This document shows, piece by piece, positions 5,111-62,247 of a DNA stretch of 64,000 bases. Position numbers and translations under genes: made by a program. Location: contig NC_073404.1 of NCBI RefSeq assembly GCF_028641065.1, positions 22,630,001 to 22,694,000 of the forward strand, read 5' to 3'. Position 1 is the first letter of the stretch, and every line of letters begins with the position of its first letter. Source of the stretch: Leucoraja erinacea (Eukaryota). The notes under the pieces were generated by a model. The model made no database searches. It was not told where the DNA came from and saw only the letters and a list, made by a program, of their open reading frames with translations.

Positions 5111-6071
5111 AAAACAAATCCCTATGTATAAAGTTTATTCAAGAGTGTTTAATTGTCACGTGTACCGAAACACAACAATGGAATTTGTAATTTGAATTTC
5201 AATATAAAGAATGAAGTTATTGCTTATTGTCAGCAAGTTACTCTGTTGTCCTTCTTTGATGATGATACTTTATTGTCACTTGAACCTAGCAAAAGTGAAT
5301 TTATTTGTTTTTGCATACAAAGTACACAAAAGAGTCGCAGTCTCTCGGTACTTCAGGAACAAAAGGTGTGGCGACAGAAAGCAATCCAATACTAGCAGTG
5401 GGTGGCACTAGAAGTGCTCAACGATGACACCAGGTATTAGGTCCCATGGCATCAGTGACCACAGGTGACCAATTTGGCAGAGTCCTGAAGGACATGACTC
5501 CAGCAGGTAATTAGTGAAGCAACACAAGAGAACCGTTTAATTGACCACATCATTACTAATCTACTGATTGTTGGTCCACAACAACATGGGTAAAAAGACC
5601 ATCACATGGTTAATGGAAGCAAAGTTCTGTTTCCACACTTTGTGGTACGACAACTGTCTGCTAAATGGGATGGCCTCAGACAAATTTAGCACCTCAATAT
5701 TGGAATCCATGAAGCACCTTGGACTATTAGCAGCAGAAATGTAGTGCCACACCCTGTAACTTTTTGGCCCAGTTTATGCATTATTCTACCATTGTAATCA
5801 AACTATGGGACCAACCCTAGTTCAACAACAAGCAGCACCAAGTAGATCCAACAATGTGAAGCTGCACACAGGACTATATATGTGCTTATAATCCAAAAGG
5901 TGTTAATAGTAGTGAAAAGAAACTACTGGGAAACTCAGCCGATCAGGCAGCATCTGTGGAGGCAGGGCTGCCAACTCTCACGCTTTGAGCGTGAGACTCA
6001 CTCATTTCAGCCAATTCTCACGCCCTCACGCTGAAGACAGAATTCTCACGCTGTCTTCAGTTCCTGCACAG

Positions 6072-6106
6072 CAAGGATCGTATAGCGGAGCTTTATACGA
6101 TCTTTG
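6072..6106. mobile_element. 35-bp hairpin insertion (CAAGGATCGTATA...TATACGATCTTTG) with 8-bp TSD; P-element-like footprint or mini-MITE
   Basis: TSD ctgcacag (6064-6071) and ctgcaaag (6107-6114); the paralogous copy at about 7126 has a single ctgcacag, i.e. the empty site. Confidence 0.75.
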
Positions 6107-6569
6107 CTGCAAAGTTTGTCTCTTTGCGCTATGACAGCGATCTATCTGTGCGATCTGGGGAAGCGTGTTGGTCGACGGCTGTGAGTGACGTCGCGTCTCT
6201 TCTCTCTTGGTTGGATGTGCAGCCGCCGGGTGTCAGCGCATCTGTTTGCCGGCTGTGAGCGCTGCGCTGCCGGCCGCCGCTGCAGCCTCGCTCCCTCCCT
6301 CCTGCCCTTCAACTCACACGGCAGCGCCAGCGCCAGGGCCGCCAATCCACGCTACACCCTGCCCGCCAGACTCCCCATTGGGCAGCCGGGAAGAGAGAGG
6401 GAGGGGGGAAAGAGAGAGAGAGGGAAAGAAAAAAAGGGAGGGATGGAGGCAAGGAGAGACAGGGGGAGAGAATGTAGAAAGGGGATGAAGAGGGAAGGGA
6501 AAGGGAAGAAAAGGGTGGGAGGGGGAGAAAGAGGTGGGATGGGGGTAGGAGGGAGGAAGGGGAGGAGGG

Positions 6570-6855
6570 TGTATGTGTATATGCGTGCTTGTGTGTCCGT
6601 CTCCCTGTGTGTGTCTCCTTGTATGTGTGTGTGTGTGTGTCTGTGTCTGTGTGTGTCTCCCTGTGTGTGTGCGCGTGTCTGTGTGTCTCCCTGTGTGTGT
6701 GTGTGTATGTCTGTGTGTGTGTGTGTCTCCCTGTGTGTGTGTGTGTCTGTGTCCCTGTGTGTGTGTGTGTGTATGTGTGTCTCCCTGTGTGTGTGCACGT
6801 GTCTGTGTCTCCGCGTGTGTGTGTGTATGTCTGTGTGTGTGTGTCCTCGTGTGTG
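6570..6855. repeat. Compound (GT)n microsatellite with repeated gtgtctccctgtgtgt units
   Basis: Directly visible; runs into the N gap. Confidence 0.95.
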
Positions 6856-7026
6856 NNNNNNNNNNNNNNNNNNNNNNNNNNNNNNNNNNNNNNNNNNNNN
6901 NNNNNNNNNNNNNNNNNNNNNNNNNNNNNNNNNNNNNNNNNNNNNNNNNNNNNNNNNNNNNNNNNNNNNNNNNNNNNNNNNNNNNNNNNNNNNNNNNNNN
7001 NNNNNNNNNNNNNNNNNNNNNNNNNN
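6856..7026. other. Assembly gap (171 N)
   Basis: Run of n. Confidence 1.
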
Positions 7027-7999
7027 CCCTGCGCGTCTGTTGTCACATCCTGGCCTTAGACAGGGCTGCCAACTCTCACGCTCGAGAGTCATGCATTTCA
7101 GCCAATTCTCACGCTGTCTTCAGTCCTGCACAGTTTGTCTCTTTTGCGCCACATCAGAGCGATCTGTGTGGTCTGTGGAAGAGCATCAGTTGGCAGCTGT
7201 GAGTGACGTCGCATCTCTTCTCTTCTCTTCTTTCTTGGTTGGATGTGCAGCCGCCAACAACATGAAGCAGCCGGAGATAGAACTAACCAGGTGAATTGGT
7301 TGTAAAACATGAGGGGGATCACAATGAGGCCAAACATCGAGAACAGGGTTCGGCAACCTACGGCACACGGGCCGAATCCGGCCCGTAACCCGAAAAACCA
7401 CGGGGGTTTTTTTCCAATTCGTTTTCGCAGGGTCGGGGCAGGCGAGCCGACCTGATAACTGCAGCCAGTCCCTGGGACGCGAGCTGATCTGGGAACGGCA
7501 GCCAGTCCCTGGGCACACAGAATACCAACTTGATCATTATGGACAAATTGGGCCAGCCATGCACATATTGTAAAACTGACTCTATGCAGATCTGAATGGA
7601 CTTAGAATGACCATTTAAGCAAAATTGCCCCACTTTCCCCATTTTGATTCTTGAGATTAATATCCCTTTGCTCTGTTAACAGCGTTAAAGTATTTATTTT
7701 AGTTTGCTTTAATTTGTTAGGTGATTTTTTGTTCTGCCATAATTTCTGAAATGGTCTTAAAGTAACTTAACTGTTATAAAGCAGTAATAAGTGATTTTTG
7801 CCCAAACAATTGGAACTTGCATAAAATGTTTGCATTATTAGCAGGGCTGCCAACTCTCCCGCATTTCACAAAATTCTCATGCTCTCACGATGATTACAAA
7901 ATTATATAATGAGAATAGGACCTGTTTTGCTTAACAAATAGTGTAGGAAGGAATTGCAGATGCTGTTTTAAACTGAAGATAGACACTAACAACTAGAAA

Positions 8000-8396
8000 C
8001 CCCCCCCATCCCAACTCCTCCCCCCCCCCAACTCCTCCCCCCCATCCCAACTCCTCCCCCCATCCCAACTCCTCCCCCCATCCCAACTCCTCCCCCCATC
8101 CCAACTCCTCCCCCATCCCAACTCCTCCCCCCATCCCAACTCCTCCCCCATCCCAACTCCTCCCCATCCCAACTCCTCCCCATCCCACTCCCCCCCCCCA
8201 TCCCCAACTCCTCCCCCATCCCCTCCTCCCTCATCCAACTCCTCCCCCATCCCAACTCCTCCCCCATCCCAACTCCTCCCCCATCCCAACTCCTCCCCCC
8301 ATCCCAACTCCTCCCCCCCATCCCAACTCCTCCCCCCCATCCCAACTCCTCCCCCCATCCCAACTCCTCCCCCCCCCATCCCAACTCCTCCCCCCA
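8000..8396. repeat. C-rich minisatellite (CATCCCAACTCCTCCCCC), about 17-19 bp unit, roughly 22 copies
   Basis: Directly visible tandem array with a variable-length C run. Confidence 0.97.
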
Positions 8397-8832
8397 CTAC
8401 GCTCCCTCGCAATTTCTCACTCTCAACTCTCACCCAATGTTGGCAGCCCTGGTGGAGGTAAATGGGCAGATGACGTTTTGGGTTGGGACACTTCTTCAGG
8501 CTTGTGATGCCACAACCAAAGGATGAGATCAAAACAACAGCCTAGCCACATCTAAACTTGGATAGCGGTGGACAATAAAATGTCTAAATGGAGCAGGCAG
8601 CTCCAACAACCCCACACTCAGTCATAGTAGGGCCCAGTATGCTATTGCTAATGTTCAGTAAGAAGTGTCAAGTGGGTGATCCATCCTGGGACTAGGGGAG
8701 CTATGGGACCAGACAATGTCCCAGTTGTAAAACTGAGGACTTGCATGCTAGAATTAACCATGCCTTAGCCACAGTGTTCCAGAACACCAATACTGGCATA
8801 TGTTTAACAACGTTGAACATTATCACACATAA

Positions 8833-9850: not shown

Positions 9851-11901
9851 TTTTTTAAAAAATATATATATTTTTATTTGTACAGTAAATTACAATACTA
9901 CCCAAACATATGTCTTAATACATTTTTTGTACCGCTTTAAGAAAAAGTAAAGAAAGTAAAGAAAGTGTGCAAGTCGTGAAGGTGCAGGAGAGTGTTGAGA
10001 AAAGAAAGCCCATTAGAAAAGAAGTTAGAGAAGGAAGTAAAGAAAGAAAGAAGACCCTAGAAAAGAAGGAAAAAGAAAGGAGAAACAATCGCTCTATTAT
10101 AACATTAAACTCCGCAGAAAGGGGACTACCAACCAAGTCTGTTTTTGTTGTTTTGTTTTTTACCAGTTGCCAGATCCTGGTACCCTTTATTTATTTACTT
10201 ATTTATTTATTTTTTAGATTACTATTGCACCTTATGCTTGTAATAGTTCCAAAAACATAGACCACGTTTTTTGGAAGTGGTCTGGTTTGCCTGCTAAGAG
10301 GAATCTCATCTCTTCCAGATGTAGTGTTTCAAACATATTTGATATCCACAGTTTTATTGTTGATGTAGGCGCATTTTTCCAGAATTTAAGTATAAGCTTT
10401 TTTCCCATTATTAGCCCGTAATTGAGTAAATTCTTCTGAAACACGTTTAGTTCAGGGTTACCTTCCGATATTCCAAAAATAATCCATTCTGGTTTTGGTA
10501 CCAGTTTTATTTTAATTAATTTTGTAAAGATGTCAAATATTTCATTCCAGAATTTTTGTATTTTTGTACAAAAAACAAAAGAATGCGCTATGGTAGATTC
10601 TTGACACAGACATTTATCACAAATGGGTGAGACATTAGGGAAGAGTTTATTTATTTTAGTTTTTGAATAATATAGTCTATATAATGTTTTGAATTGGATG
10701 AGAGTATGTCGTACGTTGATCGAACATTTATGCACCTGTAATAAGTGATTATCCCAGCTCTCTTTGAAATTTTTATAGCTAATTCTTGTTCCCAGTCTCT
10801 TCTAATTCCATCAGTTGTGGGTATTTCTATATTTAAGATGATGTTATATAAGTACGATATTAGATTCGCTGATTCCGCCTTTGTCTTCATTGCTTCATCC
10901 AGTAAGTCTGTAGGCATATTATGATAGTCTTTTGTGTATTTTTTCAGATAATCACGAATTTGAAGATATTTAAAATATTGATTATATTTCAAATTATATT
11001 TCAGTTGTAGTTGTTGAAATGATAGTAATTTTCCCAATTCATACAGATCTCCGAGTGTTTTGATTCCCATTCTTTCCCATTGTATAAACGATTTGTCTAT
11101 AATTGATGGTTTAAACGATGGATTATTAACTATTGGTATTAAAAGAGATAGGTTTCTTAATTTTAGATTCTGTTTTATTTGTTTCCATGTTCTAATTGTG
11201 CTATGTATAATTGGATTTTTATTATAATTTTTGTTATTCAGATGTATTGGTGAGAGGAGAGTCGCTCCTATATTACACGGAGAGCAGTCCTCTCTTTCCA
11301 TTACAATCCAGTCCACCTGCTGGGCAGAATTGTTCAGCAGGTGAATCATATTTTTAATATTTACTGCCCAATTATAATACATAAGGTTAGGGAGCGCTAG
11401 ACCACCCAACTCTTTTCGTTTATTAAGGTGTGCTCTTTGTATTCTATGGGATTTATAATCCCATATAAAATTTGTAATGTCCGAGTCCAATTTTTTGAAA
11501 CACTTTTTTGGGAGATATATAGGTATTGATTGAAATAGGTATAGGATTTGTGGTAAAAAGATCATTTTTATAGCGTTTATTCTGCCTATTAGGGACATCG
11601 GAAGTGTTTTCCAGAATTTAATCAAATTATTTAGTTTCTTAAGTAAGGGATTATAATTGGCTTTAAACATATCATGGCAGTTTCTGGTAATTTCAATTCC
11701 CAGATATTTGAATTTTTCTGTGGCTACTTTAAAGGGGAATTTCCGGAGGTGTGTTGAGTCGTTGGGTTTTATCGACATAATTTCACGTTTGTTCCAGTTT
11801 ATTCTATATCCTGAGAAGGATCCAAAGTCCTCAATTAAATTTAATATGTTTGGTATACTAATTTGTGGTTTTGTGATGTACAATAGTACATCATCGGCGT
11901 A
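9851..11901 (-). mobile_element. L1-clade LINE, 5'-truncated ORF2 (RT C-terminal half plus CCHC finger) and 3' UTR
   Basis: YADDVLL at the 5' junction, 410-aa ORF (FSGYRINWNK, FKYLGI, GGLALPN) and 167-aa ORF (CDKC..HSFVFC) split by one frameshift near 10755; aataaa and A-rich tail on the minus strand near 9851-9880. Confidence 0.93.
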
Positions 11902-11904
11902 GGT

Positions 11905-12200
11905 TTTAGTGTGATTATTTGAGTTTGTCTGGGTCTTAATGTACTTTTAAACAATTGTCCCTTCACGCCACAATTATTGCAACCAGAACCTTTGTGTGTG
12001 CAGCCATCAGCTTGATATAACTTGCCACCACAGTGATGACATCTTCCCCTCTGGTTGTTCTTCCCCTTTCTCAAGGATGCTGGGGGCAATCGTATTAGCA
12101 CTCTGGGCCTTTGCTTGGTGATAATGATCCTGTGCTTGCTGTACTGCAGTCGCCGTTACTTGGGCAATATCAAATGTCTGCCTGACATCCACAGATCAGC
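11905..12200 (-). mobile_element. Gypsy-type LTR retrotransposon gag remnant (two degenerate zinc knuckles)
   Basis: CHHCGGKLYQADGCTHKGSGCNNCGVKGQL preceded in another frame by TFDIAQVTATAVQQA, resembling Gypsy gag C-termini. Confidence 0.6.
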
Positions 12201-17340: not shown

Positions 17341-17797
17341 TTATTGATTTTTTGTACAAATTACATCTAATGCATTCTTCGCATCATCGATCTGCTGCTG
17401 CAACCTCTCGCGCATTGCTTCTGTTGTTGCTTTCTTTAGTCTGCCTTCCATTTCTTCAATAACTGCACGGTAACCCACCACATTGTGGAATACCCGAATA
17501 GCACGATCGCCACTGGAAACTAAGAACCTACTGTTGATGTCAAAAGCCAAGCCAACAATGTCCTCGCCGTGCACATTTAGGAATTCTTCCTCCTGCCTGC
17601 CCATCTTGGTGTTGTGCATTGTGATGTTGAAGCCATTGGAAATAGCTACCACCCTGGCATCAGGAGAAAGAGCGATTCGGCAAGAATCAGAAACATCGTA
17701 CTTCATAGTTAACAACAAGTATGGGTCTTGCTGCTGTTTGTACTGAACATCGGTGTCCCACAGCTTCCAGGTGCCATCTTTTGAAACTGTTGCCATT
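17341..17797 (-). CDS. TBL2: TBL2 exon 7 (last coding exon; MATVSKDGTWKLW...CTKNQ stop)
   Basis: AG acceptor at 17798-17799 on minus, phase 2, TAA at 17341-17343. Confidence 0.95.
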
Positions 17798-20700
17798 CTA
17801 TCCAGGAAACAAATAATGATATATTTTTGAAATAACCATAGTCTGTACTTTTGTTAAAACAATATTTTAGACCACAATCCATAGCATTAGCAATTCTGAC
17901 CAATTACTAATTTCTTTTTTTAATCATTCTTGCCCGCAAGTTAATAATTTATTAAATTAATCCAATTACCAGCTAAAATTGTGACATTTTTTGCAGCTCT
18001 TGGCACCTTAATAATCTTGCTCGAAAAGCCAAATGCAATCAACAAGTGGAAGCAGCCAAATGAAATGACACACTAAATAGTCACAACTGATATTAGTTCA
18101 CATTTATCTTTTCAAACCATATGACATTTTAGCATGCTAGGCAAATTCTCTTATCTAAAGCACGATAAAACATATTTAGGAGTCCTGTCTCCTTTGGATT
18201 TTTCATCAGTCATCTTAATGTATGTCTTCTGGTTTTCAAATCTACTACAGATGAGAACAGTTGCCTTTTGTTTACTCCAGTGGATCCTTGAAGAATGTGA
18301 ACACTCTACAAAATTTTCTCTCAACCCATTCTTTTCCAAAGTGAACACCACCAGCTTCTCCAGATTACCCATTAAATAAAGCGCCTCTTCTCTGGAACCA
18401 CTCGTGAATTGCTTCTGCACCCCAAAACTTTCACACCCGCTCCAAAGAGAAGTATTGAGAAATGGAAACAAAATTCTAGTTGTGGATTGTATGTTTTACA
18501 AAAATTCAATGCAACTTCACGACATATAGTGCCCTCGATAGTGTTTGGGACAAAGACCCATCATTTATTTATTTGCCTCTGTACTCCACAATTTGAGATT
18601 TGTAATATAAATAATTAAATGTGGTTAAAGAGCACATTGTCGGATTTTAATAAAGGCCATTTTTATACATTTTGGTTTCACCAAGTAGAAATTACAGCAG
18701 TGTTTATACATAGCCCCCCCCCCCCCCTCCCCCATTTCGGGGAACCATAATGTTTGGGACACATGGCTTCACAGGTAATTGCTCTGGTGTTTAATTGCCT
18801 CCTTAATGCAGGCACAAGAGAGCTCTCAGCACCTAATCTTTCTTCCAGTCTTTCCATCACCTTTGGAAACTTTTATTGCTGTTTATCAACATGAGGACCA
18901 AAGTTATGCCAATGAAAGTCAAAAAAGCCATTATGAAACTGAGAAACAAGAATAAAGCTGTTAGAGACATCAGCCAAACCTTAGGCTTACCAAAATCAAA
19001 TGTTAGGAACATCATTAAGAAGAAAGAGAGCACTGGTAAGCTTACTAATCGCAAAGGGACTGGCAGGCCAAGGAAGACCTCCACAGCCGATGACAGAAGA
19101 ATTCCCTCTATATTAAAGAAAAATCCCCAAACACCTGTCCGACAGATCAGAAACACTCTTCAGGAGTCAGGTGTGGATTTGTCAATGACCACCGTTCACA
19201 GAAGAATTCATGAACAGAAATACAGAGCCTACACTGCAAGATGCAAACCACTGGTTAGCCGTAAAAATAGGATGGCCGGGTTATAGTTTGCCAAGAAGTA
19301 CTTAATAGAGCAACTACAGTTCTAGAAAAATGGTCTCGTGGACAGAAGAGACGAAGTTAACATATCAGAGTGATGGCAAGAGCAGATGGAGGAGAGAAGG
19401 AACTGTTCAAGATCCAAACCATACCACCTCATCTGTGAAACACGGTGGTGGGGGTGTTATGGCCTGGGCATGTATGGCTGCTGAAGGTACTGACTCGCAT
19501 ATCTTCAATGATGATACAACTGCTGATGGTAGTAGCATAATTAAATCTGAAGTGTATAGACACATCCTACCTGCTCAAGTTCAAACAAATGCCTCAAATC
19601 TCATTGGTCGGTGATTCATTCTACAGCAAGACAATGAACCCAAATATACTGCTTAAACAAAGGAGTTTTTCAAAGCTAAGAAATGGTCAATTCTGGAGTC
19701 GCCAAGTCAATCACCCAATCTGAACCCAATTGAGCATGCCTTTTATATGCTGAAGAGAAAACTGAAGGGGACTAGCCCCCAAAACAAACATAAGCTAAAG
19801 ATGGCTGCAATACAGGCCTGGCAGAGTATCACCAGAGAAGACACCCAGCAACTGGCGATGTCCATGAATCGCAGACCTCAAGCAGTCATTGCATGCAAAG
19901 GACATGCAACAAAATACTAAATATGACTACTTTCATTTACATGACATTGCTGTGATCCAAACGTTATGGTGCCCTGAAATGTGGGTGCTATATATAAACA
20001 CTGCTGTAATTTCTACATGGAGAAACCAAAATGTATAAAAATGCTGTTATTAAAATCTGACTGTATGCACTTTGACCACATGTGGATTTTTTTTCTATTA
20101 CAAATACCAAATTGTGGAGTAGAGGTAAATAAATAAAGGATGGGTCTTTGTCCCAAACATTATGGAGGCCATTGTTCCATTTATAATGTCCAGGCTCACA
20201 TTTGCCCTTGTAATTGATTTCTCAACTTTCCTGTTATCTTCCAAGATTCATGTGCATTCACTCCACATCCCACTATATAGTTTAATCTAACATCCTGTAT
20301 CCAGATTTGGTCGCACCACTTTGTAAAAAGATCATAGAAGAGCATTTAATGACTGCAGCAAACTCAAGACACTTAAACCTGTGGAATACAAGAATAATTA
20401 GAGTCAATTAGTTTTTCTGCAGAGCACAAAACAGGCCTTTTGCACCATCAAGTGCACACTGCTTTTTTACCCACCTGCGCTGATTCTATTGGCCCACCTT
20501 AGGTCTGTATGCATCTATGCCTTACCTATTCTAGTAGCTGTCCAAATGCCTCTTAAGCCGTATTTGAATCTACCGTCTGCTCTGACAGCACATTCCCTAC
20601 TGTCTGCCTTCAAAATCCACCAACAAGTTACAGCTCGTTCAAAATGCTGCAGCTCGGCTTGTAAATACCAAGAAAAGGAAACATCTAACCTCAGTATTAT

Positions 20701-23700
20701 ACTACAGGTTCACAATCTTTTATCCGAAATTCCGAAAACCGAAAAGCTCCGAAAACCCAACATTTTTAACTGCCGGGATCAAGGCGCAAACTCGCGACCT
20801 TGCGGCCACGACCCGAGCACTGAGCCACCGCTAAAAATCTACGCTAAAAATCTTCCATTCCGAAATCCGAAAAATTCCGAAATCCGAAAAGTGTCTGGTC
20901 CCAAGGTTTTCGGATAAGAGATTGTGAACCTGTACCTTCATTGGCTCCCTGTGAGATTCAGGATAGACTATAAAGTCCTCCTTCTTGTCAAAAAGCCCCA
21001 AATGGCTTAGGGAAGGCATATTTTACAGAATCCCTCCTTCCCTAAGCCCCTACTCGAGTGCTCAGGTCTTCTGATGCCGGCCTGTTAGCCTCTCAATGCC
21101 GCAGCAATAAGAACATTGATGAAGCAGCCTTTTTCAATTATGCCCCCAAGCTGTGGAATACCCTACCCAGGGCTATGAGACATCCACTCAGTTGACATTT
21201 TTAAACGGCAGCTAAAAACTTATCTTTTCAATTCAGCTTTTAACTGACTTTACTTCTTCTGATGACATTGTAAAAAATACCTTTTTTCTCTTGTATTTAT
21301 CAGCATAGACTTCAGCAGCTTATGTGCTCATATAGTATATGGGACTCTGTATTTTACCTCAGTGTTTTTGTTTTGTATCCCTTTTACACCCTCAATTCTT
21401 TTATTTTTTAATATATTTATATAAATCTGTGCTCTTTATGTCCTTACCATTTTTAATTGTATTTTTGTTTAGACCTGGGATTTTGTGAAAAGCACTTTGG
21501 GTTGCATTCAATTGTATGAAACGTGCTATATAAATAAAGTTATTATTATTATTATTATTTTAAAAAACTTCCAATTCAGAACTTCTTTGAAACTCCTTCC
21601 TCTCATTATGCATTCTTTATTTTTAATGCCCCTACCATGGGCAATAAATTGTATCTATCCTATCTATACCTCATAAAATGTTATATACCACTACATACAT
21701 CTCTACTCAGCCTCCTCTGTCCAGGGAAATTAAGCCCAGCCTATGCAGTCTCTCCCCATAATGAAAACCTTCCAAACCTGTTGAATCACCTCTACAATCT
21801 CTCGAGCACGATTTGTCAATTAGAGTTGTGCACAATACTTCAAAGTGCGGTCTTACCAGTGTTTTGTAAAGTTGCACAATATAAAAACACAATTTCCCAA
21901 CTCTATAACTGTATGTCCTAATCTATAAATCCAAGTATGCCATATTCCTTCTTCACCACCCTGTCAACCCTTGTTGCCATTTTCCGGGAACATTCAGTTC
22001 CCTGCCATTTACTGTATACGCGTGGAGTATTGTGTGCAGTTTTGGTCTCCAAATTTGAGGAAGGACATTCTTGCTGTTGTGGGAGTGCAGTGTAAGTTCA
22101 CACAGTTAATTCCAGGGATGGCGGGACTGTCATATGCTGAGAGAATGGAGTGGCTGGGCTTGTATACTCTGGAATTTAGAAGGATGAGAGGGAATGAAAT
22201 ATACGATTATTAAGGGTTTGGACACGCTAGAGACGGGAAACATGTTCCTGATGTTGGGGGAGTCTAGAACCAGGGGCCACAGTTTAAGAATAAGGGGTAA
22301 GCCATTTAGAACAGAGATGAGGAAACATTTTTTCACACAGAAAGTTGTGAGTCTGTGGAATTCTCTGCAGTGGAAGCCGGTTCTCCGGATACTTTCAAGA
22401 GAGTGCTATATAGGGCTCCGAAAGATAGCGGAGTCAGGGGATATGGGGAGAAGGCAGGAATGGGTTACTGATTGTGGATGATCAGCCATGATCACATTGA
22501 ATGGCAGTGCTGGCTCTATGTCAATTGCATTACCTTATTAAGGTAATTGTACCTATTGTCTATTGCCTTACCCTTATTAAACTTCCCAAAATGTTTCACC
22601 TTGTTTCACCAAATGTTTCACCACAGGGTTAAATTCCACCTGGCAATGCTTCATACAACTTTCCATTTTGCTGCATCCTTTGACAAATGGCCTCACTATT
22701 CACAACACTACTAATGTTCTGTAATTATAAACTTATTAATCATACTTCCTACATTTAGAAACAAGTTGTTAATAACAAACAGGAAAGATCCCAGCACTGA
22801 TTCCTGTGGTACACTACTGGCCACAGTCAACCAAAAAGATTCCTTCAACCAGCACCCTCTGCCTCCTATTACCAAACCAACTTTGTATCCAATTTGCTCC
22901 CATTTGCATTAAGTTTCCAGATATGCCCCATGTAGGGCCCTATTAAATGTCTTACTAAAGTCCATACAGACAACATCTCGCACCCTGCCTTTGTCAATCT
23001 TCTTTAGTTAACTGCTCACAAAACTTAAACAATTTAGAGAGAATTTCTCCTCACAATGCCATACTGACTACCCCTGATCAGACCCTGCCTTTCCAATGTA
23101 TATAAATCCCATCCCTTAAAATGTTCTACAATTACCTTAAAACCGATTTAAGGCTTATTGCCCTGTGATTACCTGTCTTATCCCTGCTGCCCTTCTCGAA
23201 TAAAGTTTATTGGCTATCCTCTAGTCTTCTGGTACCTCCCATCTGTTACTAGCAAATGGTATAAAATCACCATTTGGGTCCAGTCATCTTTTCCCTTCCC
23301 ATTGCAATGTGGGAATTAGCCATCCTTATTGATTAATGGAAATACTGCAAATAATGAAGCTTTTCAACTCCATTCTTGTAAGTAAACAATAGTTATTAGG
23401 CCAAGAAAGATCTAAACAAGTTCACTTAAATTGTATGTACACAGTTCTAGATTATATATCAAGAGTTCATATAGGCCCACTTGCCTACTCGTACCGAATG
23501 AAATTAATTTTCTGCAAGAATTCAAAATATAGGTACGCTCTTAACGAAGGTCAATGTTGCAGGTCACAAAAGACAGGTCTTACCTTCTGGAGTCATTGGA
23601 GAAACTAAATGAGTAAATCCCAGCCGAATGCCCTTTTAGATCAAAGGCTCTCACGACCTCTCGGAATTCTCCTGATTTGCTAAAACAAACTTCCCAAACC

Positions 23701-26700
23701 TTCACATCCGGTGTAAAACCACAGGAAGCCACAAACCTGCAGAAAAGCAAATCAACCGTGATCTATGGAATATAGTAATTTTACAGTCTTTAAAAGCTGT
23801 ACAAATCTGCTATCACCATAATCATTCCTTGGACACTATTACAGTGAGTGTACACAAAATAAAGCAATTGCTCCAACACACCCAAAACACTAACACTGAA
23901 ACGCTGTTTGATCAGAACCCAAGGGTTTGGACACTGTTACTCCTCTCCTCCTGTGAAGAGCACGCGGCATTATTGCTGGACCAGCACATTTACGGTTGAA
24001 AAATAAATTAAAAATAACTGCACAATGCTGACCTTCCACAAGGAGACACGGTGGCATAAGCATTATTCATTTGGTTAGTGTTAATTGTAGTAAGGACCTC
24101 TCCTTTTAGATCCCAGATTAGGATGGTAGTATCATTGGAGGCAGACATAATGAACTTTCCTAAAATTGAAATAAGACACACTGTTATTATATTTTGGTCC
24201 ATATACATTTTCTCTGTACACAGCATTTATAGATGATTGTTACATAGTAAAGAAAGGACTAACAGCAGGTAATCAAACTTGTAAATGCACACAGGCTGCA
24301 GAGTCCCTACACATGGATTTACACATGTCATTTCCAATCAGCAATCCTATTATTTCAGTCAGGCACTCACAATATTCCTTCGCACATGGTGGGGAGAAAG
24401 TATGGCAAGTCATCCCAAAACATTGTCTCTTATTTCAAAATTTAGTACAAAGGGACTTGGAGACTTTAGCATAGGGGTGCGATGGAGTGAAGGAGATATT
24501 TACAAAACATACTGTATTTGGGAATGGAGGGAGAATATTCCCATACAAATATAATGAATGATACTTTGGTTAACTTTGGCAACCAACAGCAACTAACCAA
24601 AAGCTGGTTGACACTAGCCCAAGGATCGATCAGATGGGTGAAATTTGCAAATCAATATATACCTGTTTCGGCAATTCCAATATTGATAATGGGAGCTTTG
24701 TGCCTCTTTGGAAAATCTTCTGGTGCAGCAGTGAATGTGAACGAACCATCATCCCTTTTAGTCATTTTAAAAACACGGATTGTTTCTTCATTTGCTAGCC
24801 ATGCGATGAAGGCTCTTCAGTGATGGAATTAAAAAGAAAATGACATTAAAACACCGCTCGTACATGTAGATTGTCGCAAAAGAATAATGATCAAACAGTG
24901 AAGGATCAGAACCGGCTGCAATTGAAACCAAATTAGAAACTGCCAAATCCTTGCCACCAACTCCCAAGTCTCACTGAACCAAAGCAAATGGGATTTTGTA
25001 TGATGTTCCCAGAGTATTCAAACAACATTCTTCCTTGGCACACAGCTGCTAAATCTAAATGGCATACCCCAAAAAAACAATGAGATAAGAACAAGATTGA
25101 AATCTCTGATTAACAGTTTAATACATCATATTTTACCTAGAATCAGGGCTGAAGCATACATGTGTAGCATGATCAAGTTCAACATTAGCTCGCATACAAC
25201 GATGATCACGTTCAAGAAAATCTTTTGTGCTCCAAATCCGAACTGTACGGTCATCAGCACAGGAGGCCAGGTACTTTCCATTGCTACTAAAATCTAGACA
25301 GCTGATATTCGCGCTGTGGCCCTTAAAAACAAAATTCACAATTCAAACTTAACTATTACAATCACTGATAAAGCATGCATGCTTACGGTGATGCCTCTTT
25401 ATTATTTTTAATAAACGTCATTCATCTTTCATATAAAAAGGGATTTGGAAAAAAACATTATTCAAAGTGTTCTCATTTCATTAGAAAAGTTCATAAATAT
25501 ACCTATGATTATGAGCAGTTAAAACTGCTTATAAGCATGGTTAGTGAACTTACTTTATAAATAATCCTACTACGCTGATCAATTATAAAAAGGAAGGGCT
25601 GCAAAACTCTGAGCAATAAGACCAAATACAATAATGAATTCAAAACAATAAGGCTACAAGGGTAGTCTAAATTGTTAGGAAGTTGTTGCTTAGGTTGGAA
25701 ATATTAGATGATCCTAACTTAAAAATTGTTTTATTGAGGCAAATATGATGACCTATCTTAGCAGGTATTATAGCAAAGAGCTTTCCTTCAAATCACCGCC
25801 CAAATGATAAATTATATGGATTGGAATTTGTATTGCTCTGCACCTTCAAGTTACAGTGAAATGAAGTTATTCATTTTTTTCTGGATCACCATGTATTCAA
25901 TTGATGTTTCTTTGAAGAGGTAATGCTGGTCACTGATCAGTTCATTTGATGGAATATGTTGTATGGTTCATAGTCTTAAAACCATTTTCAGCCATATAAA
26001 AGAATGGAACATAGAAATGTCTAAGATAAACTTTGACGTAATTTTCTGCATTATAGTAGGTAAATTAAAGTTGTTGTTGAACCTTAGAACTTACACATAT
26101 TTTGCTTTATTTCCCCCATTTTCAGTGTTCCCAGTGATAGTATGTAACACATATGCTGAAGCAGGTAATGTGTTGCTTTATAACTTTGACGTTCCTTACC
26201 TTCAGTGAAGTGGCCAGCAAAGGGTGGGTAAACACGTGTTGCTGCAACTTTTCTTTGCGTGAACGTAGCAACTTTTGCTTCTTTGATGCTACATTTCGAT
26301 CGTTCACACCATTACTGACTTTACCGTCTTCTGCATAAAATAACAGGCAACTTCAGTTCTCCAATCTTTTACAATAATTCAGTTGAAAAGCCTTCTAGAA
26401 TCATAGTGTTCAACTACATAATCTGTTCATCCATTAAGTTAGGAAGAGGGGCTGAGGTTGCAGCCCAAAAAAGGGTGCAAGCAAAAACACCACATAACAT
26501 TTCAGCCATAATTAAACTCTGACAGAGACAGACATTATAAACAAAACAAATTGGTGGTGGTTGTGGGGGCATGTAGTTGGAAAATTCAATATTCATATTT
26601 CATAACGTTGGGTTGTAAACTACCCAAGCAGAATATAAAGGGGTGACTGAACCAAAGAACTGTGGCTGGAGTGGTTCCTGCGGTAGGTAGAAGGGGGTGT

Positions 26701-35443: not shown

Positions 35444-38400
35444 GTAAGGATTTACTCCCTCAAACTTTTGGAATTATTTTCTACTTGCAATTTTTTCCTT
35501 GTGCGGAATGTGTAACACAATTGGCCATATTTTAATTCAATATTTATTCTCCATTTCTCTTCCTGAAGATCTGATCAGCCTGGCTCATTATTGGATCCAG
35601 TAAAACTACTGTAATTTTGGGATAACTTCTTGGTTCTCTGCATTGAAACAGTTTCACTCTGCCAGCCAGATGCAAGTAAGAATATTAGAAGTTGAAACAG
35701 AAGTAGGCTATTAGGATCTTGGTGCCTGCTCTGTAATTGAATAAGATCATGAATGATTATGTATCTCAGCTTCACGTAGCTGCACTAACCTCCATACCCC
35801 TTAATTTGCTTAATATGTTAACAACCTTTCCATTTCCGTCTTGAATCTACTCAACAACTGAGCCTCGAGAGTCTTCTTGGGTGGTGAATGCAAAGATTCT
35901 CATTTAAATGGTTAATCCCGTAATTTGAAACTGACCCCTAGTTCAGTATAGTTTAAGAAAGAACTGCAGATGCTGGAAAAATCGAAGGTAGACACAAATG
36001 CTGGAGAAACTCAGCGGGCGAGGCAGCATCTATGGAACGAAGGAATAGGTGACGTTTCGGGTCGAGACCCTTCAGTCTGAAGAAGGGTCTCGACCCAAAA
36101 TGTCACCTATTCCTTTGCTCCATAGATGCTGCCTCACCCGCTGAGTTTCTCCAGCATTTTTGTCTACCTAGTTCAGTGTACCTTAGTTTGGGTAAACATC
36201 ATCTACAAGATGTCTGCCCAATCACCAGATAATGCAAACTGGTTTGCTTAACCTCTCTTCATAAAACCAACCTACCATTTCAAGAGACACAAGAGACAGC
36301 AGATGCTGGAATATTGAGTAAAACACAAAGTCCTTGAGGAACTCAGCTGATCAGGGAACATTTGCCGAAGGAATAGACAGGCGACGTTTTGGGTCGGGAC
36401 CCTTATTCACCTGTTCATTCCTTCACCAGATGCTGGCTGTCCTGCTGAGTTCCTCCAGCACTGTGTGTTTTCTATCATTTCAGGAAATGATCTGGGTATG
36501 ATTTCCATTCTGCGCGATATTGAAAAACAGATGCACCGGCCACACTGTCTGCAGACTTACTGCTCAATTAGGAGTGGAATAGTGGAATACTATTCCACTC
36601 CCAACACTGGGATACAGTTCCACTGCTCCCATTGGGGATTTTATATCCTGTAGTTCCACATTAGAATACATGTTCATACCCAGTAACAAGAACTATTGCT
36701 CATGCAGTAATGTAAGATTACAGTATGGCTGCCTCTTCCTGAGGTACTTCCCACCGTTCCACATTGGGGTACTTGTAACCCACGTCCAATAGTCCTTTAG
36801 TACCATACTAGATTACTATCTTAGTGCTGTACCATTCCTTTGTCTGATAGTGAAGTACAGATCTTCTGATCTATCCGGGTTCTGCTTTGGGGTGCAGTTC
36901 CACAGCGTCACAGCGAGTAAAATTCCATTCTAATTGATATTCTTCCACTGTACTTAATTGAATACTGTTCCACTGCACATTACTAGATGCTGTTATACTG
37001 CCACCTACAGTGTACATTTCCGCTGCTCTTTACTGCATACTGTTTCACTGCCCCTTGCTGGGTGCATTTCCACTTCTCTTCATTGGGCACAGTTCCAGTG
37101 CCCATTACTGTGTACATTTCAACTGTCTCTTACTGAGGTTCAGATCAATAGACCCTGACTGGGTACACTTCCAATTTCACATACAAGGCACAATTTCACT
37201 GCCTCTTACTGACTCCATGCTCCTGAATCAAATAAGGAAGTTCCACTACCCCTTACTAGCTTCTGTTACAATGCCTTTTTATGGTTACAGTTCCACTACC
37301 ATTACATGTTATAATACTACTCTCCTCCATTGTGGGGTATTGTTCTGCTTCATCGTGGTTGGAAGTCCATCACCTCTTAATGGCTGCTATGAGTCTGAGC
37401 AAGACCTAAGGTATGAGCCCAGACAGCCTACTGTCTCCGCCTCTTCCTTTCTTCCCCCCCCCCTCCCCACTCCACATCAGTCTGAATAAGGGTCTCAACC
37501 GGAAATGTCGCCTATTCCTTCGCTCCATAGATGCTGCCTCACCTGCTGAGTTTCTCCAGCATTTTTGTCTACCCAGAATTCTTAACATCCGTATAATTGA
37601 ACCCTTGGGAAAGATACCTAGGTCCTCTATTATCAGAGCAATTTGCAGCAGTCGAATCTTTTGTAGGGATTATATGCCCTTTAGATGTAACCTAACTAAT
37701 TTACGTTGATGATTACAGCTATGTTCAGAATAAACTGTGGATTTATTTTTAGCGGAAGCCATGGGCTCACTCCACCTACCTCCTGTTGGCCAATTGGAAT
37801 AATGTTCCCTTCCTGTTTTAGGGTTGTACTTCAGTAACTGAAGGACCAATTCTGGGTCTGTTCTGATCCTTTTCATTTTACCTGAGGTGTATGGTTAAAA
37901 CACACACTATATGAAGTGCCTGGATTGCACCCTATTTCTCCAATTGACCTCAATATCTTTGGTAAAAATCGGACAGGTATTTTGCTCCTGGTCAGTTTTA
38001 GTAATGCCTACTCTGTGAACTAGGGCATCAGAGAAGGGCAGGGTTTAAGCACCAATGATTCTCCTCACAGCAAACATCTCACTCTTGTTCTTTGGCCAAT
38101 GGGTGTCCTCTTGAATGAGACTGTGGAAAGCACCCATCACCTATAGAATCCATTGCAGCAATGATCCATCCTCTCCAGAAATGGCTAGAAAATCAGAGGA
38201 AAGCATTTGGAAAAGCTTCAACCAATACTTTGGTACCAGTTGAGTGAGATTTTGTGAATTGATTTTAACATCAAGCAAACTTTGCAGGGCTAATCCTGAA
38301 GCTGCAATTCCTGTGCATATCTGGTCACGACTACATGGATTGAAGGAGGCATGTCAAATTATTCCATTTTTATGCCAGATGGAATGTAAATGCAGTTTCA

Positions 38401-41400
38401 TTTGAACCCTCTTTTGGATTTTGTACCAGCAATATTTTATGAACCCTCTTTAATCATAAATTAAAAAAAAACTTGAAACTAGTAACTTGGTAAGTGCATA
38501 GGAAGGAACTGCAGATGCTGGTTTACACTGAAGGTAGACACAAAATGCTAGAGTAAAGCATCTGTGGAAAGAAAAATGGTTAATTGGATCCAACCCTTAT
38601 CTGAATTCATAGTGTAGTGAGTCAGCTCTGACCGCACTATTGGCTGTTGGTGCTGTACTGATTAGAATATTCAAGTGTAGTACAAAGGCACTGTACATAG
38701 TCTCTATAGTATTCCTGGGATCTTGTTGATGATATTAGCTCCCTTATGCATTGCATAATAGTTATTTTGTACACTATTCCCCTCAGAATTGGTTGACAAT
38801 GTGCTTCATGTAAGTGTACACCTTGCACCTTACCAATGCAGTAACATGTTGACATTTGTTGGGATTAAAAATTGAAACAGGTCTGTTCATTTTAGAGCAT
38901 GGTGGGATTTTTCACAATGGGGGATCCAAGAACAAAATATAAAAGATTCCTGCAATAATTGCAAGAAAACAATATCTGACAAAGAGCTCTGATATTTATT
39001 GATTTTCAATGTAATAATGTTAGTGTTTACTACAAGGTAGACAAAAATGCTGGAGAAACTCAGTGGGTGAGGCAGCATCTATGGAACAAAGGAAATAGGC
39101 AACGTTTCGGGCTGAAACCCTTCTTCAGACCCGAAACGTTGCCTATTTCCTTCGCTCCATAGATGCTGCCTCACACGCTGAGTTTCTCCAGCATTTTTGT
39201 CTACCTTCGATTTTCCAGCATCTTCAGTTCCTTCTTAAACAAAAGTGTTTACTACAAGTGTCAGAACAACTAAAGTGAAAAGGAAGTAAAAAAATTGTTG
39301 AAAGAATCCCCTAAATCTTTCAGCAGCACAGAGGTTAACAATTTAAGTTATTACTGAATAGATAGGACATGGTTTATGAGTAGAACATCATCAATCTACA
39401 TTTCAGAATATTCCATCTGACCCTCGAAGAGTTCACAGAGCAGAGAGGTCAAAGGTCCCACAAATAATTACAAGGGAACATTACTGAGGAATTTTAATTG
39501 CTCCTCATTTAGCACAGTTGGCCATGTAAGCTAAAGATTCAAGAGATTTTTTGCATCAAATACTTTGTTTATTTAGTTTATTGACTGGAACAGGCCAATG
39601 CTTTGGAAGAAGTCCAGCAGAACAGTTCATGTGATCTGATATAAAGGCCAGTAAATAAAAATGCTTAGGAAAGAACTGCAGATGCTGGTTTAAATTGAAG
39701 GTAGACACAAAATGCTGGAGTAACTCAGCTGGGACAGGCAGCATCTCTGGAAAGAAGGAATGGGTGACGTTTCGGGTTGAGACCCTTCTTCAGACTAAAA
39801 TAAATGATATAAATCAAAATAAATAAATACATTCGGAGCAAATAAAAATGCTCCTCTTGTTTGAAGCTATTTCTACCAGAGATAGCCTAAACATTGCCAG
39901 GAAGATGCCATTAGCATTGGAGAATAGAAAAGCCACAAAATTATGTGAGGGTTTCCAAGAAGTACAGTAACACGTATTAAATTAACACGAGCACAACTGG
40001 AACTTAAGGAACTGTTTCTCTAAAACAAAGAAGTTTGTTTCCTATTCTTTATTCATCCTTTCACTTCTAGAATATTTACTGTTTTGAACATTCACCTCAA
40101 TCACTAAGTTTTGCCAGCTGTTGCAAACTGCCCATAGCAAGCACGATTACCTGCCCTTCGAAAAATTGAATACAATCTGATTTGTTGTCTATATATCTTG
40201 TTTATATTTTATTTAGTCCATGTTCAAGACCAACCGTGGAACAGTGGGTGGGTACTTCTTGGCCGGGAGGAACATGAAATGGTACACTGTAAGCGACTGC
40301 TATTTTATTGATTTAATTTATTTGATAACAGCTTATTAAATTATAGTAACTGCATTGTCAGAAATCTGACATCTTAAGGAAGCTAAAATTACCTTTGTGT
40401 TCATTCATGAAGATGCCACTGTTAAGCAATAGGTCGCAGTTGACAGACAAGTCACAGTCTAAATACATGAACATATAAATGGTTTAGATTGAATCAAAGT
40501 CTATAAGCAGCAGGAATTTGACTTTATGCTTTATGATTGCAAGCAGCAACAGGTAGCTTTTAAGCTGATTTGGACAAACCAGAAATTTCTCAATTATATT
40601 GGATTAATTTGGCCTGTTACGTAATCGCTGCATGCTCAAAATAGCCTCAACGTGTATAGAGCACAATACTTTTGTTTTGACAGCTAATTGTCCATTCTTG
40701 CATTAGAAATAAGTTTTAAGGACTTTTTCAGTGGCAAAAAAATCTCACTTTCTCAATTGCATTTCCAGGTTGGAGCCTCGCTTTTTGCCAGTAACATTGG
40801 AAGTGGCCACTTTGTTGGTTTGGCAGGCACAGGGGCAGCAAATGGGTTGGCAGTCGGTGGCTTTGAGTGGAATGTAAGTACAATGAGACAATTCAAAGAC
40901 ATTTAACATTTTAGGAATCTTGACTGGATCACTGGGATTCCATTTTCCTAAAGATGGGCCTCTTCATATATCCTGGTCAACTTGGCACAAGTTCTGTCCT
41001 GATGCTGGATCCCGTCCGCACTCAGATACTGACTTGAGGTTGATGAAGGGTCTCAACCTAAAAAGTTGCCCAGGGGAATTACTTACCCTGATGCCACCTG
41101 ACCTATTGAGTTCCTCCAGCACTTTATGCTTTGTTCAAGATTCCAGCATCTGCAGTTTTTTGTGTCTCCATTTTACTGCTCCATTGCAAATCTCCTCAAA
41201 CTATGCCTACTCTGAAGAAGTTCCAGGTGCGGCAGAGGTTCACCTGCACCTCCTCCAACCTCATCTATTGCATCCGTTGCTCTAGGTGTCAGCTGCTCTA
41301 CATCGGTAAGACCAAGCATAGGCTTCACCCAACACCTCCGCTCGGTTCGCAATAACCAACCTGATCTCCTGGTGGCTCAGTACTTCAACTCCCCCTCCCA

Positions 41401-44400
41401 TTCCGAATCCGACCTTTCTGTCCTGGGCCTCCTCCATGGCCAGAGTGAGGTCCACCGTAAATTGGAGGAGTAGCACCTCATATTTTGCTTGGATAGTTTA
41501 CACCCCAGCGGTATGAACAATGACTTCTCCAATTTTAGGTAGTCCCTGCTTTCTCCTTCTTTACCATCCCCTTCCCAGCTCTCCCACAGCCCACTGTCTC
41601 TGCCTCTTCCTTTCTTCTTCCTGCCACCTCCGCCTCCACATCAGTCTGAAGAAGAGTTTCGACCCGAAACGTGGCCTATTTCCTTCACTCCATAGAACCT
41701 GCCTCACCCGCTGAGTTTTTCCAGCACTTTGCCTACCTTCAATTTTCCAACATTTTCCTTCTTAAACAACTGAATAAGTTCTCCTCCTCTCTCTGACAGG
41801 GGTTCTGTGAGACCCCCTCACACTGCTCCTCCACTGTGATTCCCACTGCTCTCCCGCTGTTCAGGTCTGAAGAAGGAACACAACCAAAAACGTTCCCTTT
41901 CAAACCCTTTCCCAGATACTCCTGAACTCTTCAACACTTTAGGCCTTGCTCAAGATTACAGCACCTGCAGTTTCTAGTGTATTTATTATCCTACTCTCAT
42001 CAATTATCTTTGCATCTTCTATATTCATTTATTTAGACCCTGAGGAATCAGATGCATACATCCCATGTCAATTGGATATGGCGCCTTTGATGAAACTTGT
42101 TTAAAGTTTGTCACCACATAGCTGCTTCTTTAGACTTTAGACTTTACTTTAGACTCTGGAGGTACAGAGCAGCTCGCCGTGCCGACCAGCAATCACCCCG
42201 TACACTAGCACTATCCTACACACTGATGACAATTTTCAATTTCACCAAAGACATTCCTTCCCCATCTGCTTGAACCCATTTTTCCCCTAAAAGCATCACA
42301 TTCCTGAGTTTTTCTCCCCATTTTCAAGTGACAATCAATTCATACATGGTATCACCTAATCATAATTCTTCTGGTTTGTTCACCAAAGTCATACGCAGGG
42401 ACACTAGTTCTGGTTTACTTGGTGCAAGATCGAAGATTTACGGATTCTTGGAACACAACAGGAACCTCGTTGCTGTGCCCCAGTATAGATTCATATTGAC
42501 ATAATCCTCCCTCGTGTTCACACCAACTTTAGTGATGTCTTGTACTCTGTCCCCTTCTCATAACTCTCTTGGTCGACAAAATGTGGAATGATCTGTCATA
42601 TTTAACATTGGGATTTGTTTCCCACAGGCCTTGTTTATTGTGCTACTTCTGGGTTGGCTTTTTGTTCCAGTGTACCTGACAGCTGGGGTAAGTATGAGAC
42701 TATTTCAAATGAACTGTTTCAGCAGTTGTTTCAGACAGCTATTAGACGATACATGGAAATATGCAAATTACAAATGACAGGTATAGGAATATTATATACA
42801 ATATGTAGTATGTACTATATACAAAAATATATACCAAGATGCAAAAATCAAATATCAGAGGGCATAGATTTAAAGTGAGAGGGGCAAAGTTTAAAGGAGA
42901 TGAGCGGAGAAACTTACACAGAGGGTGGTGAGTGCCAGGAACATGCTGCCAGGGTTGGTGGTTGGTGGTTAAGGCGGAGGAATATGAATTATGCGCAGGT
43001 AGATAAGAGCTGGTCTTGGCATCATGTTCGGCATATACACTCTGGGCCAAAGGGCCTGATCTTGTGCTGTACTGTTCTCTTTCTATGTTCTAATCTTTCT
43101 CCAGAGGATTGATTCAAACACAATCTCCAAAATGGAAGGACTCTATACCCAACACATTGTGTCACCTAGGGTTCTGAAGCTGCATTCAATGCTGGATTTC
43201 ATAAGTGAAAAGATAGTGGGGTTAATATGGATTTTAATTCTTGTGAGTGAAAATAATTGAGCAGCATTTCATATAGATTTTCTCTTTGTAATTCGCAGCA
43301 ATTTCAAAATATTGATCTCATCCCTTGTACATATCATCATGTAGTCAAAAATAAAGGTGACATTTGGTTCATTTGAATGTTTCTGGGAAATTATTTTCCT
43401 GTGTAATCAAATACTGGCTTAGGTTTTTAACTTTGAATTTGTTGATTCAGTAACTAGGCAAAAATGCTTGGACATTATTTGATAATTTCACCTGTGCCTT
43501 TTCCCAGGTCATCACCATGCCACAGTACCTAATGAAAAGGTTCGGAGGAAACCGAATTAGACTGTACCTCTCCCTCATTTCTCTTTTCCTTTACATATTT
43601 ACCAAGATTTCGGTAAGTATCTCATCATGTGCACATGACATTCAGGCAGGTCTCCGATGTGACACCTGCTCATAAAAGTTGTTCTTATGGGGAAATGTAT
43701 TCTTTAAGAATGCCCGATAGTCAAACGCTGTTTATGAAAGGATTTCCAGGATACCAGAAGGGTTAAGGTTCCCATTGGGAAGACTCCTGTTAATTGATGT
43801 TTATTTACTGATGGTGATATGTTGTGTTTTCGCTGACAGGTGGACATGTTCTCTGGAGCAGTTTTCATCCAACAAGCTTTGGGGTGGAACATCTATGTTG
43901 CAGTAATTGCATTGCTGATTATTACTTGTATCTACACTGTCTCAGGTAGGCACTAAAGATCAGACAGAGGAATATTGAGTTTACATGAAGCATTCTGTAG
44001 GCTGCCACTCCAGAAAATGGACAATACAAATTGTGATTAGTTAAGATGTCAGAGGGAGGATTGGAGGGAAGATTGGGGAAGATTAGCTACTAGGGCCCTG
44101 TGAGGTTTGGTAGTTCAGGGAGAATGGACTATGATTGGGCGATAGCCGTTGCGGGTTTGTCAGTAATAGATGATCAGTCGGGATGAGAAGGGGAATGGTC
44201 AGGAAGAGGAATTGATCATTGGAAGGGAAGTCGGTAGTTGGTGGGGTATTGGCACTTGGTTGTTTGTGGTACTGGGAGGGTCTAGATTGAGAAAGCAGAT
44301 TGATGGAGGTATTGGTGAAGTAATATTGACAGATCACTAGTCTGGATTGGATTAGGTCAGTAGGTTTGGTGGGGCTGGGCAAGGGTGACGCTTGGTGAAC

Positions 44401-60512: not shown

Positions 60513-61199
60513 AATAGAGCTTTGGCCTTGACATATTGGGTTTGAGCCTTGACCTTTGTTGTCCTTCCATCTATGTTCAGATCAACTGTTAGACTATGTA
60601 GCTAACACTGAATAAGGCATCTAAAATAAATGACAACATAAGAACCCTTTTCATAAAACAGTATTTCCAAACTACTTTAGTTGCTCTTTTGCTGAATATC
60701 AGTTCATATAATTTCTTGGCTCACTGATCGAAATGGTTTTCCAGATTTAACGTTATCAAAATCGGTCATGTCATCTAATCTGCTTTAACTCTGGGACACT
60801 GCCATGTCCTCATTAATGTAACGTCACTGGGACCGGGTACAAGTTAAGATACGGAAAACAGAATGTTGGAATGAAGTAAATGGGAAGCAATGGTCACCAG
60901 GGGAGTAGGGAGCAGAATCTTTTTATTTCATAGCGCTTTAAATGTGTGATTCTTGTTTGTTTTTTTAGTTTGTAAAGAAAATATATTGCTAATTTTATTT
61001 TTAATATTATTTTCATTTTGAATACATTAAGTAGGAGTTCATGAATGTGTGAAAGACCGAGTTGGTTGGCAGTCTCATAACTTCCAATGCCTTTCTGGGG
61101 GTGCAGTGCAGGCAGCTATTTATGCTGGGAGAGAGCTTACACTGAGCTGGGGTTCAGTGAGCTGGCGTTCAGCCTCTCGGAGGAAAACTGTGTCCAAAC

Positions 61200-61247
61200 C
61201 AAAGATTCTAGAGGAGATCCTCTAGAGTAGATCCTCTAGTATATTTG
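61200..61247. mobile_element. 48-bp hairpin insertion (CAAAGATTCTAGAGGA...TCCTCTAGTATATTTG) with 8-bp TSD GTCCAAAC
   Basis: TSD at 61192-61199 and 61248-61255. Confidence 0.7.
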
Positions 61248-61282
61248 GTCCAAACCACAGTGGAAGGAACATCAAGATTAAA

Positions 61283-61465: not shown

Positions 61466-61507
61466 CAGCATGATCCGAGGAATGTGGGGTAGTGATCTGT
61501 CACTGTA

Positions 61508-62247
61508 TAGGGTGATTTCACTAAAGGTCACTGGAGCGTAGATCCGCACCCACGTGACCAAAATTCTCAAGTGGAGGACACTCGAGGGTTCGGTACATGT
61601 TAGTGGATGGGAAAAAACACATTTTCCCACCCGTTAAAAACATAGAAAACGTCGAGGTTGTGAGCTGCAATTTACTGTGCCAGTCGGGGTGACCGTGAGG
61701 CACAGCTACCTAGATTTACAGGGGAAAAAAAAGATAGCAAGTAAGGTAAATTCAAGAGGGAACTGAAGGTGCCAAACCGGTGATAATGAACAGCCGACAT
61801 TTGCCGTGGATATTTACAGGTCCAAAATATCAGGAATTATCACGTTTGCTCGCTGAATTTATCAAAAGTAAGTTAATAATGCCTTACTTTTGATGAAATT
61901 CAGCGAGCAAACGTGATAATTCCCGATATTTTGGACCTGTAAATATCCACGGCAAATGTCGGCTGTTCATTTCCGGCGGTTTGGCACCTTCAGTTCCCTC
62001 TTGAATTTACCTTACTTGCTATCTTTTTTTTCCCTGTAAATCTAGGTAGCTGTGCCTCACGGTCACCCCGACTGGCACAGTAAATTGCAGCTCACAACCT
62101 CGCCGTTTTCTATGTTTTTAACGGGTGGGAAAATGCGTTTTTTCCCATCCACTAACATGTACCGAACCCTCGAGTGTCCTCCACTTGAGAATTTTGGTCA
62201 CGTGGGTGCGGATATACGCTCCAGTGACCTTTAGTGAAATCACCCTA
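61508..62247. mobile_element. 740-bp foldback (palindromic) Tc1/mariner-type MITE, TA TSD
   Basis: ta|tagggtgatttcactaaaggtcactggagcg ... cgctccagtgacctttagtgaaatcacccta|ta; near-identical arms of about 365 bp with a 10-nt loop at 61873-61882. Confidence 0.92.

Follow-up and report, generated by a model that had tools for sequence, protein, structure and literature searches.

The window, by which we mean the whole stretch of 64,000 nucleotides of Leucoraja erinacea DNA that was analyzed, carries exons of TBL2, a WD40 gene, at 17341 to 25342 on the reverse strand and exons of a sodium:solute symporter gene at 40688 to 52933 on the forward strand. At the protein level, one TBL2 exon shares 98% identity with Amblyraja radiata and 88% with a stingray, which marks the window as skate DNA. 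A broken Tc1-type transposase, in HTH and DDE pieces, lies in a TBL2 intron (18837 to 19917, forward strand), and the reverse transcriptase fragment of a LINE is found at 10232 to 11946 on the reverse strand. This analysis concerns a short hairpin insert inside a further repeat, along with two other inserts in the window, and the features are as follows.

5963 to 8451, no strand assigned: the host, a composite non-autonomous element with terminal inverted repeats (TIRs), with left ends at 5963, 7061, and 7842 and a right end at 8451.
6064 to 6071, forward strand: left 8-bp target duplication, CTGCACAG, present as a single copy at the related empty site.
6072 to 6106, no strand assigned: hairpin insert of 35 bp with inverted ends of about 15 bp, equal to the 33-bp paralog form plus two extra T's.
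6107 to 6114, forward strand: right copy of the duplication, CTGCAAAG, matching the left copy at 7 of 8 positions with the mismatch at 6112.
7126 to 7133, forward strand: related empty site with one copy of the 8-mer, in the second left end of the host, 76% identical.
61192 to 61255, no strand assigned: insert of 48 bp (61200 to 61247) with its perfect 8-bp duplications.
62532 to 62577, no strand assigned: insert of 30 bp (62540 to 62569) with its perfect 8-bp duplications, of the same family as the insert at 6072.

The host element, which may be hAT-like by resemblance, ends in 13-bp inverted repeats and sits within a SINE, flanked by a 7-bp duplication. It contains short subterminal repeats, microsatellites, an assembly gap (6856 to 7026), and an 18-bp tandem array (7990 to 8400), and the 35-bp insert is positioned about 110 bp inside it. 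The original prediction was of a 35-bp hairpin between 8-bp duplications at 6064 to 6114, and this is borne out by the sequence, as is its origin by insertion with an 8-bp duplication. Indeed, the segment from 7061 to 7255 aligns to 5963 to 6227 and has one copy of the 8-mer and no insert. The predicted empty site stands in part: 7126 to 7133 is a valid related empty site with a single 8-mer, but it lies in a diverged paralog within a multi-copy repeat and is not the pre-insertion allele.

The terminal arms of the 35-bp insert pair at 12 of 13 positions, and folding of its DNA gave a z score of -6.5, with 0 of 200 shuffled sequences equally stable. In the 33-bp form, the arms pair over 15 positions with 3 bases in between. 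The 20-nt TIR that had been proposed was probably mis-parsed, as the perfect inverted repeat extends over about 15 bp and the 20-mer crosses the center of the insert. In the window, the same variant letter is found at position 9 of both arms (6080 and 6098), while public contigs have the family letter at 6080 nearly always and are mixed at 6098; arm-to-arm conversion in the hairpin is possibly behind the shared variant. The site at 6072 is junk DNA within another repeat, without sign of function.

Public contigs from 4 of 24 sequencing runs (X1, X4, X15, and X18) were aligned on positions 5500 to 6400; X1 is possibly the window's own source sample and was left out of the independent counts. 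Each run yielded 63 to 109 contigs with loose ends before 5963, indicating that the host element is multi-copy, and the contigs break at this repeat. The insert was found with host flank in contigs from X1 (records 2, 3, and 4), X15 (records 10 to 13), and X18 (records 18 and 20), corresponding to organism labels A, D, and E, and insert-free contigs, with joints from 6068 to 6071, were found in X1 and X4. Record 10 of X15 represents another locus, because it has 397 letters of unrelated flank ahead of the host start. Since several host copies and three organism labels carry the insert, it is old and was copied along with the host. We infer that the event at 6072 took place once, in an ancestral host copy that was then amplified, and that the insert is older than the divergence among at least some of the skates. 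This argues against the description of the system as recently active for 6072, and a recent private insertion there is ruled out by the insert being common to labels A, D, and E. An assembly artefact at the nearby gap is also ruled out, since a contig spans 6036 to 6203 with no gap (record 4 of X1, 1 difference from the window in 168).

The two letters absent at 6091 to 6093 define the 33-bp form, which was read in 6, 8, 4, and 0 contigs of X1, X15, X18, and X4, respectively, where the count of 0 does not show absence because no X4 contig extends over 6093. The window copy of the insert gained two T's after the 33-bp form. The family letter, C, at 6080 was read in 21, 17, 15, and 6 contigs of the same runs (6 to 21 per run, contig depth not being copy number). 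Depth in X1 drops from 1430 to 568 between 6080 and 6091, which could mean that contigs end there or that long elements depart from the alignment. At 6112, the one mismatch between the duplications, X1 contigs read C in 6401 of 6485 of the depth, and the A of the window is therefore likely the derived letter. One X18 contig carries a separate 28-letter member of this insert family in another copy of the host, at host position 6295 to 6302; it has an 8-bp duplication, and its first letter departs from that of the family.

The window was scanned for CA...TG inserts of 20 to 70 bp with arms pairing at no fewer than 8 of 10 positions and an 8-bp duplication with at most 1 mismatch. Exactly three inserts were found (6072, 61200, and 62540), against a mean chance level of 0.1 per window in order-4 Markov simulations (n = 40), in which matches with these ends occurred in 0 of 40. 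Duplications of 7, 9, or 10 bp gave no matches in the same window scan, a 6-bp variant gave one unrelated match, and allowing two mismatches in the 8-bp duplication added one match, which is SINE-derived. The inserts at 61200 and 62540 that had been named alongside 6072 are real, each with perfect flanking duplications, and the claim that one family of ends runs across all three was also upheld. Without its 14-nt tandem duplication, the 61200 insert is reduced to a core of 34 bp whose arms pair at 14 of 17 positions; what it has in common with the 6072 insert is the outermost 7 bases and a portion of the arm, the inner arm having diverged. The 62540 insert can be derived from the 33-bp form by loss of 3 bases from one arm, or parsed as 20 plus 10 nt of the two ends. 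It may be younger than the 6072 event, having a perfect duplication and perfect 10-bp arms.

A copy outside the window was encountered in a 3-kb, AT-rich metagenome contig, L003, where one of 12 metagenome matches to the 20-mer proved to be a full 33-bp hairpin with the same center (2962 to 2994). This 33-mer is identical at 29 of 33 positions to the window copy without its two T's. Its flanking duplication matches at 2 of 8 positions directly and at 7 of 8 if 3 bases are skipped, and the palindrome runs 3 bases into the flanks. An 8-bp duplication thus accompanies 3 of 3 window inserts and, as a fourth, the X18 insert, with L003 having no clean one. A 9-bp tandem duplication adjoins the family member in this contig (2940 to 3005). 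In our reading, L003 is animal-like non-coding DNA; apart from the inserts and a single match of 17 bp, it has no SINE or other repeat in common with the window. This suggests that the 33-bp family is present in another animal, and one short contig cannot show horizontal transfer.

In the 64-kb window, the end motif matched five times, with four matches within the three short inserts and one without a partner, and no TIR-plus-duplication element of 70 to 300 bp with these ends was detected. Likewise, no long element with these ends was found in the window or in the prokaryote, virus, or metagenome collections. Pattern scans of viral contigs returned 0, 1, and 17 stretches, none with a partner end and duplication, and of the 11 matches in prokaryote genomes and 12 in metagenomes, 22 of 23 had no partner end. 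Those 22 look like chance or coding matches, leaving L003 as the only real family member. A Pfam search covered 378 of the 391 window open reading frames (ORFs) of at least 55 amino acids, the others being 6 that cross the N gap and 7 within the tandem repeat at 7.9 to 8.5 kb; it returned only RT, Tc1, WD40, and SSF domains plus weak noise, with no P, THAP, or hAT domain. Rfam gave 0 matches on the window, and no P-transposase domain was found in 5 prokaryote genomes. That skates have P-type transposase genes is supported by a supplement row that lists Thap9-5 (LE16602), with the P-transposase domain PF12017, as annotated and expressed in little skate, a gene not linked to these ends (PMC10115646). 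The suffix "-5" in that row hints at several such gene models in this species. Among the titles and abstracts listed in literature searches, none concerned these ends or P footprints in skates, though Repbase or Dfam may have an entry, and a full-text search with five 14-mers of the ends led to two articles, on gut microbiota and H. pylori.

Taken together, we favor, at a probability of roughly 0.55, the reading that the insert is the excision scar of a DNA transposon of the P superfamily, a membership that is putative, and that it works like a P donor-site footprint. Fly P footprints keep about 16 bp of each end. Of the two cuts made by the Drosophila P transposase, one falls at the 3' end of the element and the other, on the opposite strand, 17 bp into the inverted repeat (PMC7776569, PMC2577343). 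The enzyme makes an 8-bp duplication, and the donor break is repaired by homologous recombination or by nonhomologous end joining (NHEJ) (PMC7776569), with NHEJ footprints consisting of overhang sequence between the duplications (PMC3878927). From this geometry, a scar of at most 34 bp made only of outer ends is predicted; the 17-nt stagger is, in the cited accounts, shown only for the fly enzyme. At the skate site, a P-superfamily transposon would have inserted at 6072 with an 8-bp duplication, and later excision would have left some 17 nt from either end on the chromosome, which repair then joined. Such overhangs joined over one shared base would give 33 bp; joined blunt they would give the 34 bp of the 61200 core, the 14-nt duplication there being presumably later or repair-templated; and joined over a 3-base match they would give the 28 bp of the X18 insert. 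The scar, without internal transposase-binding sites, would be immobile, and that at 6072 would have spread only as a passenger of host element copying, later gaining 2 bases.

Several observations favor this scar reading. The predicted correspondence of length to two 17-nt P-type overhangs holds for the common 33-bp form and for the 34-bp core at 61200. Independent inserts measure 33 (35 in the window), 30, 28, 33, and 48 bp, and 4 of 5 directly consist of at most 34 bp of outer ends only, as does the fifth, at 61200, without its duplication. The retained ends of 33, 34, and 28 bp all fit 17-plus-17 joins, with a 20-plus-13 parse of the 33 bp also possible; as 22 microhomology joins can be drawn for 17-nt ends, the 28-bp fit is weak on its own. 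Two families with different inner arms arrive at 33 and 34 bp, and a length set by the enzyme is simpler than two mini-elements of equal size. The inserts also have CA...TG inverted ends, as in Drosophila P and Pdre2, a feature not unique to P, and the 61200 site agrees with the P target consensus core at 6 of 8 positions.

The resemblance to characterized P systems is partial. Repair products at P donor sites in Drosophila melanogaster have the same 8-bp duplication, the same CA...TG ends, a length equal to two 17-nt overhangs, and the same target letters, T at 2 and A at 7 (PMC7776569, PMC2577343, PMC3878927). In contrast, the skate inserts have unrelated end sequence, only a putative parent, and a natural origin, being old and fixed in the germ line of a vertebrate. 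The closest vertebrate system is zebrafish Pdre2 and its zfTHAP9, with 13-bp TIRs and a similar combination of CA...TG ends and 8-bp duplication, but the TIR sequence is another one and the Pdre copies described there are internally deleted elements rather than 33-bp scars (PMC10983969). The account of zfTHAP9 excision in cells given in that paper is of flanking deletions, with no kept ends reported (PMC10983969), and these deletions would count against the scar model. Other evidence also counts against it. All three target sites in the window are nTnnnnAn (background 0.085 each; the X18 site has no A in the window's copy), which fits the hAT rule as much as the P rule and counts against P specificity. 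The P target consensus core is matched at only 3 and 4 of 8 positions by the two sites other than 61200, and the ATR/WAT ends of the 14-bp palindromic fly target motif fit no flank (3 sites only). For scars, three short inserts to zero long ends across 64 kb is a high ratio. A simple 17-nt join does not yield the 30 bp of 62540, which call for a later 3-bp deletion or the 20-plus-10 parse. Finally, the missing parent element and the unclean duplication of L003 weigh on the same side.

The strongest competitor, which we nevertheless consider unlikely, is a fixed 33-bp mini-MITE made of two inverted ends only and mobilized in trans by a transposase of P or hAT type, with the 35-, 30-, and 28-bp forms as later indels and 61200 as a second such family. 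It draws on the same shortage of long ends in the window, on the strong hairpin, and on the ease with which 35 bp reads as the 33-bp form plus 2 and the 28- and 30-bp forms read as deletions. TIR-only mini-elements do exist, such as the 80-bp human MADE1. Uniform short copies had been set out beforehand as a sign of such an element, and uniformity was found in part: three of the independent inserts, at the host site, 62540, and L003, have one central junction in common, which is expected of a fixed mini-element and argues against scars. However, the many 33-bp contigs trace to one host-copied event and hence are no proof of uniformity, and coincidence would be required for two sequence families both to measure 33 to 34 bp. 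Moreover, P elements require more than 100 bp of each end for movement (PMC1562414), so a 33-bp P derivative should not transpose; ends of P and P-MITEs alike are stated to need about 100 bp or more, and the smallest named P-MITE of Anopheles gambiae is about 205 bp (PMC1562414). The P-MITEs of A. gambiae and BuT5 of Drosophila are, like the skate inserts, non-coding and TIR bounded with an 8-bp duplication, and belong to the P superfamily, but they run from about 200 bp to 2.4 kb with subterminal sequence, whereas the skate inserts comprise only the outermost 15 to 17 bp (PMC1562414, PMC3698922).

A further reading, which we judge improbable, is that the insert is the collapsed remainder, after internal deletion, of a longer transposon with an 8-bp duplication, whether hAT or other, its body lost by aborted gap repair or by slippage between short TIR matches. 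Non-autonomous hAT elements have the same duplication length and the same nTnnnnAn preference (PMC3878927), seen here at 3 of 3 sites. Under the 20-plus-13 (6072) and 20-plus-10 (62540) parses, one end contributes exactly 20 nt to each insert; at 61200, the 14-nt duplication resembles aborted synthesis; and microhomology-mediated miniaturization has a precedent in Tc1/mariner (PMC3814204). Such collapse is expected to leave a wide range of sizes, whereas 5 of 5 independent inserts measure 28 to 34 bp when the 61200 duplication is set aside, and the 70- to 300-bp intermediates sought in the window scan did not appear. hAT elements need subterminal repeats, for which the 28- to 35-bp inserts have no room. 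A hAT excision footprint as such is ruled out: in hAT excision, as described in PMC3878927, it is the flanks that acquire hairpins, and the resulting footprints derive from flank sequence and retain no transposon ends. A hAT origin would therefore require the insert to be a mini-element or a deletion product. An origin by local fold-back repair or by chance, with no transposon involved, is very improbable and largely refuted, for although L003 has no clean duplication and a palindrome reaching into its flanks, the flanks do not template the insert, these ends are found again at unrelated sites where the 8-bp duplications are exact, and the simulations gave none.

Short hairpin scars between 8-bp duplications are a mark known mainly from fruit-fly experiments, and vertebrate P-type transposons have been described mainly from zebrafish Pdre and domesticated THAP9. 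Cartilaginous fishes are reported to be poor in DNA transposons, which make up 0.93% in A. radiata; scars this short would, we believe, escape standard repeat annotation. As P footprints, the inserts would testify to a past invasion of skates by P elements, make the cut geometry of a vertebrate P transposase readable without biochemistry, and offer skate phylogeny homoplasy-poor markers. As mobile 33-bp units, on the other hand, they would rank among the smallest transposing elements known. Tentatively, and with more doubt than confidence, we also entertain a wider possibility, in which skates hold a dense germ-line record of P scars from at least two undescribed families, a vertebrate enzyme made the 17-nt cut, and the L003 copy arose via horizontal transfer between marine animals. 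Were this true, the 17-nt stagger that was measured for the fly enzyme would have operated in a vertebrate too, and, were the window typical, a skate genome would hold tens of thousands of scar sites; 3 inserts per 64 kb scales to about 100,000 per 2.2-Gb genome, a very rough figure from one selected window.

The window also contains larger palindromes. Head-to-head SINE palindromes with arms of 78 to 88 nt occur at 62733 to 62903, 35986 to 36169, 39034 to 39207, and 55149 to 55345, and in one of them the arms are 100% complementary and 3 nt apart. A 746-bp palindrome of 96.5% (61505 to 62250), with TATA at both ends and a single copy in the window, is MITE-like and lies between the inserts at 61200 and 62540.
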